Assembly: GCA_963842815.1 (NCBI GenBank) | Contig: CAWJHU010000001.1 | Location: 264,708-328,707, forward strand | DNA: 64,000 bases | Direction: 5' to 3' | From: Candidatus Nomurabacteria bacterium | GTDB lineage: Bacteria > Patescibacteriota > Minisyncoccia > Phycocordibacterales > UBA9973 | In this document: one piece after another, positions 1-22,413 of the stretch | Numbering within the stretch: the first letter of the stretch is position 1 | Layout: each line of letters begins with the position of its first letter | Made by a program: the position numbers and the translations under genes | Notes under the pieces: model-generated | What the model saw: the letters and a program-made list of their open reading frames with translations, nothing else | The model's database searches: none | Told to the model about the DNA's origin: nothing

Positions 1-698
1 GAAATTAATCCGCCCTTTCTTTTTTTTATCGGCAAGTCTTCTTCCTCCCCGCCTGCATCAGCTATGATGAAAGCATTGCGGGCAGGCTCTTCCTCCTTAA
101 CTTTAATTTTTTCCTCCTTGGTTATGGACTTTTCCACTTCTTTTTCTTCATCTTCATTTAGAGTTGATTCGGGTTTCTCTTTTTTTCTTCTGATAAAATT
201 CCAAATATTTTTCAAAAATGGGGCAAGGTCAGGTCTTGCGTCAAACATTACCAGAATTGAAATTATTAAAATTGCGCCCAGGAAAATTATGCTTGCATAA
301 ACATCAAAAAGAGAAACAAAAGGTGTTGATAAAATTCTCCCCAAAAGTCCGCCGGCATGTTCCTGCGAAACCACATCTATCATGCCGAGGCCGGAAAGCA
401 AAAACATTGTTCCGCTCAGGGCGCGGGTCCATCCGATGTTCGGAGTTTCTGATTTTATAAACGAAAACCCAAGCAGGAGAAAAAGAAGAGGAAGAAGAAT
501 ATATCCAATGCCCAAAAAATAATCCAAAATCTCGTAAGCATTTTTGCCGGCGACTCCTCCCATATCAAACATAGACATGAAAAGAAATAGTGCCAACACG
601 AAGAAAAGAATTGCCCAAATGGTGTGCTTGGTTTCGGTTTTTAATTTATTTATTGAGGAGTTATTTTTAGAAAATTTCTGCTTGTCTTTTTTTGCCAT
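1..698 (-). CDS. FtsK/SpoIIIE-family DNA translocase, N-terminal polytopic membrane domain plus acidic/Lys-rich linker (partial; ATPase domain would lie beyond position 1)
   Basis: Reverse-strand ATG at 698-696 opens a stop-free frame to the window edge (MAKKDKQKFSKNNSSINKLKTETKHTIWAILFFVLALFLFMSMFDMGGVAGKNAYEILDYFLGIGYILLPLLFLLLGF...). Several hydrophobic helices are followed by a charged linker, as in FtsK N-termini. It is absent from the ORF track because no stop falls in the window. Confidence 0.45.
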   Translation of the reverse strand, partial: MAKKDKQKFSKNNSSINKLKTETKHTIWAILFFVLALFLFMSMFDMGGVAGKNAYEILDYFLGIGYILLPLLFLLLGFSFIKSETPNIGWTRALSGTMFLLSGLGMIDVVSQEHAGGLLGRILSTPFVSLFDVYASIIFLGAILIISILVMFDARPDLAPFLKNIWNFIRRKKEKPESTLNEDEEKEVEKSITKEEKIKVKEEEPARNAFIIADAGGEEEDLPIKKRKGGLI

Positions 699-882
699 AC
701 AGCTATTTTAACACAAATTACCCATATCAAAAAGACAGATTATTATTTTATACTGCACGGATATTTTTTTGCTAAAAAATTCCTCGTGCTCGCGCCGTCG
801 CGCTCCCAAGGCAGTCTTAAACAACAATCTGTCTTTTTTAAAATTTGTATTTTTGCTTGCATTTTTATTTGTCCTATATATA

Positions 883-1716
883 ATGGACAGCATGTTAGGG
901 GAAAATAAAAACCTAAAAGACACCTCTAAAGATTCCATAAAAGACACTTCTTCTGCCTCCACTTCTTTGACTATGCCTTGGCGAGACCAAGCAGGGTATT
1001 TTAATAAAATAAACAAACTCATTACTGCCCTCTACATAGTAACAGACACGATGGAAAAAGATGAGCCACTGCGTCTAAAGTTAAGGACATTTGGAGTTGA
1101 AATTCTATCAGACATTGCTTCCTTGCCCAAAGGGACATTTGGCAACCTTGATGAAAAAATTACTGCAATTTTGTCCCTTTTGAATATTGCTTTTGACGTT
1201 AGAATGGTCTCTGAAATGAACTTCAATATCCTCAAAAAAGAGTTTTTGGAAATGAAGCAATCTATCCAAGAATTCACTAAACGCAATAATGCTTGGCTGG
1301 AAGAGTTCATAAATACTTCCTCTCCTTTTCAGGGGAAGACTGAGGAGGGGTTCTTGAAAAATTCACCTCACCCCAACCCTCTCCTGATAAAGGAGAGGGG
1401 GCAAGAAATTTCTAAAGGACAGGGTACCAGAATCGGTGTCCAAAAGGGAAGTACTTTAATGAAAGCTTTAAACAAGGTTGAAAGTGGAAATAACAATTTT
1501 GAAATAATAAAGAAGCAAAGAAGAGAATCAATAATAAAAATCATAAAAAATAAACCTATCGGCGCAAGCATAAAGGACATCATTCTTGCCGTTAGAAATC
1601 TCGGAGAAGAGATGGGAGAGAAAACCCTTCAAAGGGAGCTTGTCTCTATGGTAAAGGACAATGTCCTTAAGAAAACCGGAGAGAAACGTTGGTCTCTATA
1701 TTTTATAAATAGTTAG
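883..1716 (+). CDS. hypothetical protein with C-terminal winged-helix-like segment; carries an in-frame REP-A palindrome (alternative upstream start at 769)
   Basis: ORF 769..1716 in the track. ATG at 883 lies directly after TATATAAT; the C-terminus (GASIKDIILAVRNLGEEMGEKTLQRELVSMVKDNVLKKTGEKRWSLYFI) looks like a wHTH. Residues NSPHPNPLLIKERGQ are encoded by the palindromic repeat at 1366-1401. Confidence 0.4.
   Translation: MDSMLGENKNLKDTSKDSIKDTSSASTSLTMPWRDQAGYFNKINKLITALYIVTDTMEKDEPLRLKLRTFGVEILSDIASLPKGTFGNLDEKITAILSLLNIAFDVRMVSEMNFNILKKEFLEMKQSIQEFTKRNNAWLEEFINTSSPFQGKTEEGFLKNSPHPNPLLIKERGQEISKGQGTRIGVQKGSTLMKALNKVESGNNNFEIIKKQRRESIIKIIKNKPIGASIKDIILAVRNLGEEMGEKTLQRELVSMVKDNVLKKTGEKRWSLYFINS
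1366..1401. repeat. REP-A nested palindrome copy (CCTCACCC..CCCTCTCC-loop-GGAGAGGG), in-frame inside CDS 883..1716
   Basis: cacctcaccccaaccctctcctgataaaggagaggggg shares its core with copies at 5871, 6010, 6591 and 21676. Confidence 0.6.
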
Positions 1717-5857: not shown

Positions 5858-5870
5858 CAAGTTAGATTTA

Positions 5871-5915
5871 CCTCTCCCAACCCTCTCCTTATTAAGGAGA
5901 GGGCGAAGGGTGAGG
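5871..5915. repeat. REP-A nested palindrome copy
   Basis: cctctcccaaccctctccttattaaggagagggcgaagggtgagg lies immediately downstream of the stop of the 2357..5857 gene. Confidence 0.6.
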
Positions 5916-5980
5916 TCGGGAGTTTAGAATCTTAGTAAATAAATAGCATTAAGTAGTCGATTACTTAAAGCACAAAAAAA

Positions 5981-6006
5981 ACCACCCTTCGGGGTGGTTT
6001 TTTTGT
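5981..6006 (+). terminator. Rho-independent terminator (ACCACCC-TTCG-GGGTGGT + T-run)
   Basis: GC-rich 7-bp stem with a TTCG loop followed by ten T-rich bases. Confidence 0.7.
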
Positions 6007-6009
6007 TTG

Positions 6010-6074
6010 CCTCACCCGGCATTCTGCCACCCTCTCCATTTTAATAAAACGGAGAGGGGAAAAGGGGGGTGAGG
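6010..6074. repeat. REP-A nested palindrome copy (full form: CCTCACCC...CCCTCTCC A/T-loop GGAGAGGG...GGGTGAGG)
   Basis: cctcacccggcattctgccaccctctccattttaataaaacggagaggggaaaaggggggtgagg. Confidence 0.6.
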
Positions 6075-6181
6075 TATATTTTCGGGGAAAGGTCTTGCCT
6101 TAAAGAGAGCCCAAAGGCAAGTCCTTGAGGAGAAAATGAGTTAATTTGCGTTTTTTATTTGTGTTATGATATACTTTAAAT

Positions 6182-18364: not shown

Positions 18365-19152
18365 GTTCTGATATACTCTTTTAATCAGTATGAATATCAC
18401 AAGAAACAGTTTAAAAAGGCGGTTTTAAGCAGGCTTTCTTTTGTCTGTTGGCCGCCTGAAAGGCGGTTTTTTTGTTCACAGTAAGGCTTGAATATTGACA
18501 ACTTAAATCCTGTTCTGGCTTTCGAGGGTCTTTTCAAAGTGCCAGAGACAGGAAAAAATTCTAAAAAATTATTTCCGAGCGGTCGGTTCAATAATTTTTT
18601 TTGAGTTTTGTTTTACCCTGATGTAATGTCAGGGTTGTGGTTTGTAAATTTCTTAACAGGAAATTTAAGGGCGTACGGTGGATGCCTTGACTTTAAGAGG
18701 CGATGAAGGACGTGGCGTTGCTGCGATAAGCTTCGGGGAGGTGCTTAGCTACCTTTGATCCGGAGATTTCCGAATGGGGAAACCCTATCAAGTAAACCTT
18801 GATAATTTTGATCTTTATGCTCAAAATGCGCACCCTGGGAAGTGAAACATCTTAGTACCAGGTGGAAAAGAGACAAATATGAATTTCCCTAGTAGCGGCG
18901 AGCGAAAAGGAAAAAGCCCAAACCGTTCTCGCAAGAGAGCGGGGTTGTAAGATGACAATTTTTATTTAATTAAAGAAGAGTCAAAAAATAAATTATTAGT
19001 TGAAGTTGCTGGAAAGCGACACCATAGGAGGTGATAGTCCCGTAAACGAAAATAATTTATCTCTTTTATTGTTATTCTTGAGTACCCCAGGACATGAATG
19101 GCCGGGGGGAATCCGGCGGAACTAACCGCTAAGGCTAAATACTCTTAAAGAT

Positions 19153-19189
<37 letters not shown>

Positions 19190-19877
19190 CAGCCCGATTA
19201 GGGCGGTGAAATAGACCTGAACCCGTATGTCTACAAGGAGTCGAAGCTAGGTATTTATATCTAGACGACGGCGTGCCTATTGAAGAATGAGCCAACGAGT
19301 TTATTCATATTGCAAGGCTAAGCTGGCTAAAACAGCGCAGCCAAAGGGAAACCGAGTGTTAATAGCGCGAATGAGTAGTATGCATAAGACCCGAAGCCAG
19401 GTGAGCTTGCCATGAGCAGGATGAAGTTCGTCGAAAGACGAATGGAGGTCCGAACCGGTAGATCGTTCAACGTCTTCGGATGACTTGTGGTAAGGAGTGA
19501 AAAGCTAATCGAACCTGGTAATAGCTGGTTCTCTCCGAAATAGCTTTAGGGCTAGCGTCGAGTGTTTTTTCTGGGGGTAGAGCACTGGAAGGTTCGGACA
19601 GGTCGAAAGATCGCTGAACCTATCAAACTCCGAATACCAGAAACCAAAGCTCGGCAGTTAGGCTATGGGGGCGAAGCTCCATTAGCCAAAAGGGAAACAG
19701 CCCAGATCTCAAAATAAGGTCCCTAAATTTATGCTAAGTGTAAAATAAGAAGGTGAAATTTCTCTGACAATGAGGAGGTTGGCTTAGAAGCAGCCATCCT
19801 TTAAAGATAGCGTAACAGCTCACTCATCTAGAGATTTTGCGTCGAAAATAATTGGGGCTAAGCATAGTACCGAATTT

Positions 19878-20222
19878 GAGGATTCGTGAACTTCATAGAG
19901 GAAAAGTTTTTTTTTGTTCTTTGTTTTTATTTTCTTGCTCGGGTAGCTCAAGCGGTGGAGCATTGGATTTTCTTTATAGTCCAAAGGTTGTGGGTTCAAG
20001 TCCCATCCCGGGTACGAAAAGAGGCCATCAGCGATTGGTCTCTTGCTAGATAGATATTGAGAAACTACTATGTCAATTTGATTGAAGCGCAAATAGAACT
20101 TCATGATTTTGATATAGGCAGGTGAGATCCCTGCTCTAGCACTAATTTATTGGCAAACTTTTTTAAAAATTTAATTTTAAAAAAGTTTGCCTCTTCTATG
20201 AAGTTCACGAATGGTAGGAGAG
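19878..20222 (+). other. intervening sequence / expansion in 23S helix 45 (~345 nt) closed by a 20-bp stem; contains a tRNA-like segment and a perfect 40-bp AT-rich hairpin
   Basis: Insertion follows ACCGAATT, where E. coli has the short helix 45. attcgtgaacttcatagagg (19883-19902) pairs with cctcttctatgaagttcacgaat (20194-20216). Internal gggtagctcaagcggtggagca...ggttcaagtccca at 19936-20010 resembles tRNA D- and T-arms. ggcaaacttttttaaaaatttaattttaaaaaagtttgcc spans 20146-20187. Confidence 0.5.
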
Positions 20223-20932
20223 TGTTCCACTCTGCTGTGAAGCAGGACTCGTGAGAGCCTGTGGAGCGTGTGGAAGTAAGAATGTTGGCACAAGTAACCG
20301 CAATGATGCTGAGAACGCATCACGTCGAAAGATCAAGGTTTCCTTGGTAATGTCAATCAGCCAAGGGTTAGTCGGGCCTAAGGGAATGGCGAAAGCCGTA
20401 CTCGATGGACAGCAGGTTAATATTCCTGCACTTCTGTATTTTGTGATGGGAGGACGGAGCGCAGTATGTATTGCTCATTATTGGATTTGAAGTTTGTTTA
20501 TTAAGAATGTTGCATAGGAAAATCCGTGCATTGCCTTTAAGTGGCGCATTCAAGAGAAATGAAAAGTTTTCGACTTCGGTCGAAGGATAATGATACAAAG
20601 CGCGCTTCCAAGAAAAATCTCTAAACTTAAAAATATAGAATCCGTACCGCAAACCGACACAGGTGATCAGGTCGAGTAGACCAAGACGAACGAGTGAGTG
20701 GTCCCCAAGGAACTCGGCAAAAAAGCAGCCGTAACTTCGGGATAAGGCTTGCCCCATATTCTATGTTATGGGGCCGCAGCGAAAGTTTCTCTGGCAACTG
20801 TTTACCAAAAACACAGCTCCCTGCGAACTCGCAAGAGGATGTATAGGGGGTGACACCTGACCAATGCCAGAAGGTCAAATATCGACGGTGCTATGGTCGC
20901 AAGATTGTAGTGCATGATTGATATAAGCCCTG

Positions 20933-20975
<43 letters not shown>

Positions 20976-21630
20976 ACCTTGTCGGGTAAGTTCCGACGCG
21001 CACGAATGGTGTAATGACTGGAGAACTGTCTCGGGGACCAGCTCGGTGAAAATACAATGCCGGTGAAGATGCCGGTTAAGTGCAGTTAGACGAAAAGACC
21101 CTAGAAGCTTTACTATAACTTGATATTGAGCATGTTTTTGGACTGCGTAGCATAGATGGGAGAGGTTTGATGTGTTCGTTTTCGGATGAATTCTACTCGT
21201 CAGTGAAATACCATTCTTTTTGAAGGCATGTTCTAACCAATACGGCAAAAACGTATTGAGACAGTATCTGGTGGATAGTTTTACTGGGGCTGTACCCTCC
21301 TAAAAAGTAAAGGAGGGGTTTAAAGGTCAGCTAGGCGCGAATGGAAACCGTGCCGATAGTGTAATGGCACAAGCTGGCTTGACTGTAAGAGGTACATCTC
21401 AAGCAGGTGGGAAACCAGAACATAGTGATCCGACCATACGCATTAGATGCGGTGGAAGATCAACGGATAAAAGCTACTCTAGGGATAACAGGCTAGTTCC
21501 GCCTAAGAGTTCATATCGACGGCGGAGTTCGGCACCTCGATGTCGGCTCACCTTAGCGCGGCGGTGGAGAAGCTGCCAAGCGTTTGGCTGTTCGCCAATT
21601 AAAAAGGTACGCGAGCTGGGTTCAGACCGT

Positions 21631-21970
21631 TTAGAACCTCACTCGCCCTAACGGATCTTCTCCATGAAATTTCAAGGAGAGGGCTGGGGTGAGGGTTAAA
21701 CAGTTTGAACCCTCAGAGGAAGAAAATTTATTACGAAATTAGAACTGTTATAAATTGAAATCAATCATTGCTAAGTTTTAGCAATCACGGCGGCGCTTTG
21801 TAGAAATACAAAGTGAGCAAGCTAACTTATATCGGAGAAACCCAATTCGCGAAAGCGAAGGACAACGCCGAGGGAAGAGTTATTTACTCACCCGTAGAGA
21901 CTGAATGTTAGCAATCTCGCAATAGATTAATGTCACAGTCCAATCCCATAAGTAATTATGGACGTAGATG
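21631..21970 (+). ncRNA. ORF-less group-I-like intron in 23S rRNA at the position homologous to E. coli ~2593 (I-CreI/I-CeuI homing-site region)
   Basis: Exon sequence GGGTTCAGACCGT | CGTGAGACAGGTTGG is interrupted by 340 nt. The 5' exon ends in T and the insert ends in G (omega-G). Candidate P7 pairing GAGACTG/CAGTCC and a GCGAAAGC GNRA hairpin are present. No ORF of 60 aa or more lies inside. Confidence 0.55.
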
Positions 21971-22301
21971 CGTGAGACAGGTTGGTCTCCTATCTACTGC
22001 ACTCGTTGATTCTTGAGAAGATTTGTTTCTAGTACGAGAGGACCGAAATGAACTGACCTCTGGTGTACGAGCTCTCCTGCCAAGGGCAATGCTCGGTAGC
22101 TATGTCGGGATTGGATAACCTCTGAAAGCATCTAAGAGGGAAGCCAGCTTCAAGATTAGGAATCGTTAAGAACCGTGAGAGATGATCACGTTGATAGGCT
22201 TTAAGTGTAAGCGCAGTAATGCGTTGAGCTGAGAAGTACTAATGTTTCGATTCCTGTTAAGAAATTTGCAAACCACAAAAAATAATAAACTTGAATATAG
22301 T

Positions 22302-22413
22302 GTTCTGGTGCTTTGACGATGGAGAAACATCTCTTCCCATTCCGAACAGAGCAATTAAGCCCATTAGTACCGATGATAGTCCCTTGGGGCGAAAGTAGGT
22401 AAGCGCCAGAACA
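22302..22413 (+). rRNA. rrf: 5S ribosomal RNA
   Basis: gttctggtgctttgacgatggagaaacatctcttcccattccgaacagagcaattaagccc...gcgccagaaca has terminal helix pairing and the CCGAACAGAG motif, 40 nt after the 23S 3' end. Confidence 0.85.

Follow-up and report, generated by a model that had tools for sequence, protein, structure and literature searches.

Group I introns classically carry their internal guide a few bases past the 5' splice site, a U·G wobble being the defining mark of that site and a continuous guide that aligns both exon ends the textbook arrangement. At position 2593 of 23S rRNA (L2593), one such group I intron is that of the Chlamydomonas chloroplast (Cr.LSU, the I-CreI intron). The cyanobacterial L2593 introns of Synechococcus C1/C9 and Thermosynechococcus are about 745 nt long, contain a LAGLIDADG gene and possess the additional helices P7.1/P7.2 (PMC1995217, Haugen et al. 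2007). In CPR bacteria, 2593 is a recurrent 23S intron site as well, usually occupied together with a LAGLIDADG_1 gene (PMC11270868, Tsurumaki et al. 2024). The same survey detected group I introns in 45% of CPR 23S insertions by Rfam and reported most CPR 23S insertions to be devoid of a recognisable ORF (PMC11270868).

We analysed a 64-kb stretch of DNA (hereafter, the window, to which all coordinates refer) that contains a 23S rRNA gene with an insertion at this site. The gene occupies positions 18654-22261 on the plus strand and matches the Rfam model LSU_rRNA_bacteria with 2318.9 bits over model positions 1-2925, that is, at full length save for two insertions. A 5S gene lies downstream, and no second 23S gene was found within the 64-kb window. 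The 18.6 kb that precede the 23S-5S pair (18654-22411) contain no 16S rRNA gene, and the rRNA genes therefore appear unlinked; the genes upstream of the 23S encode ribosomal protein L10 and a mechanosensitive-channel-like protein.

Between positions 21630 and 21631, the universally conserved helix-93 sequence GGGUUCAGACCGU is broken by 340 nt of unrelated sequence (21631-21970, plus strand, between GGGTTCAGACCGT and CGTGAGACAG), and the exon picks up again at 21971 with CGUGAGACAGG. The two junctions read ...GCTGGGTTCAGACCGT (21630) / TTAGAACC...GTAGATG (21970) / CGTGAGACAGG..., and the exon join is ..AGACCGU/CGUGAGACAG. An insertion of ~344 nt appears at the same helix-93 point in the alignment to the Rfam bacterial LSU model, so that sequence and alignment gap both bear out the 340-nt interruption proposed in the initial annotation. 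Counting back from A2602, the A that bulges out of GACAG in helix 93, places the insertion directly after the equivalent of E. coli U2593 (U21630). The initial annotation also had the 5' exon ending in U and the insert ending in G, and both hold; this terminal G (omega-G, 21970) ends every member of the intron family described below. The longest ORF inside the insert measures 32 aa, and the insert thus holds no homing-endonuclease gene, of the LAGLIDADG type or otherwise, again as annotated.

The annotation was likewise right that introns are known from CPR rRNAs, with group I introns at 2593 already published (PMC11270868). The window intron shares host clade, gene and site with those published introns, which were detected as group I through Rfam at the level of E-values. 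It differs in having no ORF, whereas the survey stresses LAGLIDADG_1 genes at 2593. Since CPR group I introns are described from this site and most insertions lack an ORF, the ORF-less window intron is of an ordinary kind for its clade. To call it notable, as the annotation did, was therefore too strong on this count; the dispersed repeat that the annotation saw embedded in it is real and is described below.

A covariance-model search of positions 21560-22040 (481 nt), as the annotation had proposed, returned a full-length match to Intron_gpI (RF00028; model positions 1-253) at 21752-21962, with 29.3 bits and an E-value of 1.2e-5, which is below the Rfam gathering score of 50. Because of this sub-threshold score, we sought relatives, using as pattern the 3' strand of P7, a gap, and then G followed by CGTGAGACAG, in one genome per species. 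This genome scan returned 14 further introns at the identical site, all of them in CPR/Patescibacteria MAGs (Saccharibacteria, Parcubacteria, Nomurabacteria, Giovannonibacteria and unclassified Patescibacteria). Two more same-site introns (L142 and L202) came from a metagenome scan, bringing the number recovered to 16. Other loci among the 120 returned by the metagenome pattern (CACGGCGG..ATCGG..CCGAGG) were chance matches in GC-rich DNA, and two scans of viral contigs yielded a single chance match (L241). At the gathering level, Intron_gpI had no match in L021, L042, L054, L055 or L063 either.

From these sequences we defined a family of 15 members, consisting of the window intron and 14 of the 16 recovered ones, which is a small set whose members were found with patterns taken from the window intron itself; L049 and L050 were set apart as an ORF-bearing subfamily. 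Long P6 inserts with LAGLIDADG-like translations occur in L049, L050 and L076. The closest relative of the window intron is L055 (Patescibacteria MAG REEB387), with 87.6% identity over 1292 nt of 23S plus intron. We assign the window to CPR on the strength of such 23S and intron similarity to named MAGs.

Six of the site-2593 introns (L021, L039, L042, L054, L063 and L079) come from MAGs labelled Candidatus Saccharibacteria. The abstract of the 2024 survey names Saccharibacteria 23S genes as an exception without insertions (PMC11270868); either these MAGs are loosely labelled, or the exception does not hold throughout. Further introns with the core motifs ATCGG..CCGAG..GTAGAGACT..AGTCC lie at other domain IV/V sites of the 23S in two Saccharibacteria-labelled MAGs, namely those of L042 (about 900-1006, plus strand) and L079 (about 299-707, minus strand), and one lineage hence appears to occupy several rRNA sites.

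To assess the core, we drew a structure from the window sequence, comprising P2, P3, P4, P5/5a, P6/6a, P7, P8 and P9 with crossing P3 and P7, and scored it on an alignment of 14 sequences running from the guide to the terminal G (A1; long P6 inserts trimmed in four). In A1, 88.2% of the cells in the core helices are paired, as compared to 35-45% when the 3' partners are slid by one to three columns, and 38 of the 52 core pairs change on both sides; none of 500 shuffles reached the observed values. P2, P3, P5, P6, P8 and P9 covary heavily, and P4 and P7 are almost invariant. RNAalifold, which is independent of the drawn structure, recovered P2, P3, P4, P5, P6, P8 and P9.

All elements of the core lie on the plus strand, beginning with the P2 hairpin (CGCUUUGUA / UACAAAGUG) at 21794-21815, which is capped by a GAAA loop and has compensatory changes in each of its nine pairs. 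The 5' strand of P3 (GCUAAC, 21821-21826) pairs with GUUAGC (21907-21912), making the P3/P7 pseudoknot, with 96% of cells paired and compensatory changes in 6/6 pairs. The P4-P5-P6 domain (21832-21893), supported by the Rfam alignment, A1 and RNAalifold alike, comprises P4 (UCGGAG/CGCCGA, 21832-37/21866-71), P5/P5a (21842-21861) and P6/P6a (21872-21893); the GNRA hairpin of the initial annotation, GCGAAAGC, is the tip of P5 with its GAAA loop. The hairpins P8 (AAUCU/AGAUU, 21913-21928; A1 and RNAalifold) and P9 (CCAUAA/UUAUGG with a GUAA loop, 21946-21961; 98% paired, compensatory changes in 5 of 6 pairs) follow.

With respect to P7, the guanosine-binding helix, the annotation had proposed GAGACTG/CAGTCC as a P7-like pairing, and these are indeed the two P7 strands in both the Rfam and the family alignments. 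The 5' strand at 21897-21903 consists of G21897, a bulged A21898 and GACUG, and its partner CAGUCC spans 21936-21941, ending in C21941. On A1 the helix is 100% paired, with five invariant pairs and one that covaries between G-C and A-U; the G-C is invariant in 14/14 sequences.

The internal guide lies directly before P2, at 21785-21793 (UCACG followed by GCGG). Its GCGG (21790-21793) pairs with CCGU at the end of the 5' exon (21627-21630) to form P1, with the wobble U21630·G21790 exactly at the splice site, and its UCACG (21785-21789) is a perfect 5-bp complement of CGUGA at the start of the 3' exon (21971-21975), giving P10. ACGGCGG is invariant in all 14 rows of A1, the first two guide columns varying; GGCGG is kept even in L079, which is without the CACG part. 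Because the exon partner bases are invariant, P1 and P10 lie outside the reach of covariation within the family. In the ORF-bearing L049 and L050, the exons end in AGAACGT and the guide reads GCGTTCT instead, so that exon position -4 and the guide change together.

These findings bear on whether the insert might be a decayed relic that no longer splices, leaving the rRNA copy inactive or wholly dependent on host factors. Such decay would fit the sub-threshold Rfam score, the missing endonuclease or maturase ORF and a J8/7 that is off consensus: in the window intron and L055 it reads AUGUCAC, deviating from the family and Rfam consensus AAGAUAU. Against it, compensated changes maintain P2, P6, P8 and P9 even in the pair of the window intron and L055 alone, the guide, P7 and the terminal G are intact, and the rest of the 23S is full-length and high-scoring, with no other copy in the window to replace it. 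We therefore regard a dead relic as very unlikely, and favour an intron that still splices.

P1 measures only 4 bp in the window intron, and the guide that forms it lies 155 nt downstream of the 5' splice site (family range, 13 to about 300 nt). A distant guide is a feature of 13 of the 15 family members, and inspection of the intervening domain revealed in these 13 a conserved strand, ..ACAGUCUGAAYCC, that pairs with exon positions -13 to -1. We refer to the resulting helix as Px. In the window intron, its 5' strand consists of the last 13 nt of the 5' exon (GGGTTCAGACCGT, 21618-21630) and continues over the splice site into intron positions +1 to +4 or beyond, where UUAG (21631-21634) extends the helix and covaries with its partner across the family. 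The exon-binding strand UAAACAGUUUGAACCC occupies 21697-21712, within which UUUGAACCC (21704-21712) lies opposite GGGUUCAGA.

On a second, anchored alignment of 42 columns with the apical parts removed (A2), Px was 88.6% paired, versus 16-47% with slid partners. Intron positions +1/+2 covary with their partners (UCA/UGA, UUA/UAA, UAA/UUA and GAA/UUC), and the sole exon variant, a C-to-U change in L039, is met by a G-to-A change in the intron strand. All remaining changes in the intron strand are transitions that keep a wobble pair. Two positions are peculiar: the base opposite exon -3 is noncomplementary in 13/13 Px members, and 12 of the 13 have an A across from the splice-site U, the exception being L005 with a U-G pair. 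The conserved AC-A-G of the Px strand resembles AC-A2602-G, the natural 3' strand of helix 93, which suggests that Px may have originated as a substitute for helix 93 or may act as one. L076 and L079 are without Px and have a short, conventional P1 loop instead, which marks Px as an add-on. Searches for Px-like pairing in L016, L049, L050, L076 and L079 gave chance-level matches only, and Px is thus specific to the 13-member subgroup.

Px and P1 draw on the same exon CCGU and therefore compete. Computed for the window sequence, the Px hairpin amounts to -49.4 kcal/mol, releasing CCGU costs +7.0 kcal/mol and the P1 duplex contributes -5.5 kcal/mol, so the exchange of Px for P1 would be roughly neutral. 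P1 can form only when the centre of Px is open, and a lower Px that persisted beside P1 would create a pseudoknot topology.

Could Px itself, rather than GCGG, be the working P1? Cleavage of the 5' splice site would then take place inside the long exon-intron helix, at a U-A pair, and UCACGGCGG would only align the 3' exon or have some other role. Px does have the formal layout of a P1, the exon end and intron start pairing with a strand of the intron; covariation supports it in 13/15 members, and in L005 the splice-site U pairs with G. The U-A at the site in the other 12 of 13 members and the mismatch at -3 in all 13 argue against this assignment, as does the distance of the Px strand from P2 (~70 nt), whereas GCGG abuts P2 as guides normally do. 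GCGG moreover supplies the U·G wobble and is contiguous with the perfect P10, and L076 and L079, which are without Px, keep GGCGG. We consider it unlikely that Px replaces P1, and retain GCGG as the P1 strand.

Between Px and the guide lies a linker (21713-21784) with several family-conserved motifs that we read from the sequences: UCAGAGGAAGAAA (21713-21725), ACUGUU (21744-21749), AUCAAUC (21760-21766) and a hairpin, AUUGCUAA/UUAGCAAU (21767-21785). Conserved single-stranded motifs in this interval include YYGAGAR, soon after Px, and ACUGUU; the latter has two complements, AACAGU in the Px strand and GACAG in the 3' exon. AUCAAUC, for which the family form is CCAAUC, is complementary to GGUUGG(U) of the 3' exon (GGUUGGU, 21980-21986, within the 3' exon start at 21971-21986), and might pair with it; its variants keep the pairing and the exon partner never varies. 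Per-sequence shuffles gave no significant support for this AUCAAUC/CCAAUC-GGUUGG pairing (p about 0.2-0.6).

The tip of Px is where the embedded repeat resides. The initial annotation had placed a half element, termed REP-A, in the intron. The repeat is real, but it is a whole element with both arms: the apical hairpin of Px at about 21636-21696 (plus strand) is a complete, imperfect, GC-rich palindrome of the form CCTCAC..CTTCTCC - loop - GGAGAGGGCTGGGGTGAGG. Sequence comparison within the window revealed further copies at 1365-1400, 5870-5916 and 6010-6075, the latter two intergenic, with the layout CCTCACCC..CCCTCTCC - loop - GGAGAGGG..GGGGTGAGG; with the Px tip included, the 64 kb thus contain four. 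The 20-mer GGAGAGGGCTGGGGTGAGGG has its second copy at 1365-1384 on the minus strand with two mismatches, where 0 would be expected by chance. The annotation had added a second palindrome, GAGGGTTAAACAGTTTGAACCCTC, downstream of the repeat. Most of it corresponds to the family-conserved strand AAACAGTTTGAACCC, whose better-supported partner is 21618-21633, that is, the 5' exon and intron start; an alternative pairing of GAGGGTTAAACAGTTTGAACCCTC with the end of the repeat does exist, but is absent from the minimum-energy fold.

The repeat family is GC-rich against an AT-rich genome. Its two copies at 5870-6075 lie in the gap between two large genes that encode peptidoglycan-binding domains, on either side of a terminator-like hairpin (AAAAACCACCCTTCGGGGTGGTTTTTT). 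A Pfam scan of ten window ORFs, five of them adjoining repeat copies, returned no match to a RAYT or IS200-type transposase. The element is absent from L055, where the homologous position is taken by a hairpin of just 20 nt, and other members bear long, unrelated hairpins at the Px tip; that of L054 recurs elsewhere within its own intron. Given these differing tips, the end of Px is a tolerant site colonised by genome-specific hairpin repeats, and dispersed palindromes can settle in a ribozyme where the structure tolerates them.

Together with the apical hairpin, Px makes a double-stranded region of ~45 bp over the exon-intron border. This raises the alternative that the insert is an intervening sequence (IVS), which RNase III would excise at the long Px helix with no rejoining of the ends, leaving a fragmented 23S; an insertion of classical IVS type does exist in the same gene at helix 45. 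IVSs sit at the tips of surface helices (H9, H25 or H45) and contain no ribozyme core. The present insertion, in contrast, splits a single strand of a helix of the peptidyl-transferase centre, helix 93; 185 nt of it make up a conserved group I core whose guide matches both exons, and an IVS needs none of this. Excision without religation is accordingly a highly improbable reading. An IVS or an insertion-inactivated rRNA copy had been named in the initial annotation as the alternative outcome, and both go unsupported in view of the conserved core and guide; the group I reading stands.

The helix-45 insertion itself, about 325 nt in length (19884-20211), lies at the tip of that helix, the classical IVS site, and is bounded by inverted repeats of 19-22 bp (TTCGTGAACTTCATAGAGG / CCTCTTCTATGAAGTTCACGAA). 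In L055, by comparison, helix 45 is short and normal. The window insertion contains a tRNA-Glu(UUC)-like gene at 19937-20015 on the plus strand, the rRNA strand, recognised by the Rfam tRNA model with 55.2 bits and by ARAGORN in agreement. The anticodon loop of this gene has 12 nt versus the usual 7, positions 1-72 form a G·U pair, and no CCA is encoded. A second tRNA-like gene occurs in L054, a 1034-nt L2593 intron (1506-2539) of a Saccharibacteria MAG, where it occupies 1882-1960 on the minus strand, again the rRNA strand, in an extension of P6; its anticodon is UAG, the anticodon loop has 9 nt, CCA is encoded, a long variable arm is lacking, and the Rfam score is 58 bits. Thus, in two CPR lineages, 23S insertions harbour tRNA-like modules whose anticodon loops are oversized. 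Instead of serving as tRNAs in decoding, the modules may be signals for processing by RNase P/Z. We found no report of tRNA-like genes within 23S insertions in the literature searched (open-access full text), and the main text of the CPR survey mentions neither a tRNA nor a repeat (PMC11270868).

Judged by its sequence, the insertion is an endonuclease-gene-free group I intron after U2593 that belongs to a CPR lineage of this site and is very probably removed by two-step, guanosine-initiated splicing. Every sequence-level hallmark of group I introns is present, and from these we infer catalysis. Standard splicing would start with a guanosine, remove the intron and rejoin the exons. Being transcribed first, Px would presumably form first, while transcription is under way; its central four exon bases would then switch to the guide, making P1, and the nine base pairs of lower Px (GGGUUCAGA/UYUGAACCC) could stay paired and hold the 5' exon, a hold that would compensate for the 4-bp P1.

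More tentatively, we suggest a split and extended form of exon recognition, which we regard as a possibility well short of likely. The short guide would provide P1 and P10, and the distant strand would clamp at least nine further bases of the 5' exon and, beforehand, hide the splice site in a mimic of helix 93 in which the conserved mismatched A replaces A2602; AUCAAUC/GGUUGGU might add a second contact to the 3' exon. If true, this could explain how, at a target deep within the peptidyl-transferase centre, introns without an endonuclease remain efficient or spread by reverse splicing. The Px family also offers a testable case of peripheral intron domains managing the choice of splice site within a tightly folded rRNA. 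For annotation, the 23S gene is best treated as interrupted yet probably functional, and the insert labelled a group I intron; at its gathering threshold, the Rfam model misses this whole CPR lineage.

How does the window intron compare with known systems? With the cyanobacterial L2593 introns it shares the site after U2593 and a short P5. It differs from them in its length of 340 nt, in having neither a LAGLIDADG gene nor P7.1/P7.2, and in the 155-nt domain between splice site and guide; the relatives L049, L050 and L079 do possess extra hairpins between P7 and the 3' strand of P3 that resemble the cyanobacterial P7.1/P7.2. For a distal guide combined with an exon-spanning helix, or for an embedded repeat, we found no description in the open-access full text searched, with PMC11270868 checked directly for tRNA and repeat. 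The repeat resembles REP/BIME-type elements in that it is a short, GC-rich, imperfect palindrome present in several copies, most of them intergenic, and is unlike them in having one copy at the tip of a ribozyme helix within an rRNA gene. For Px, the nearest counterparts are the extended guide sequences of engineered trans-splicing group I ribozymes and the alternative helix P(-1) of the Tetrahymena pre-rRNA. What they have in common with Px is the idea of base pairs outside P1/P10 that compete with P1 and keep the splice-site region in place or out of reach. Unlike the engineered guides, Px is natural, lies in the L1 region of the intron itself, binds the exon upstream of P1 and is backed by covariation across its family. 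If exon recognition is indeed split in this manner, it would represent a natural counterpart of engineered extended guide sequences.
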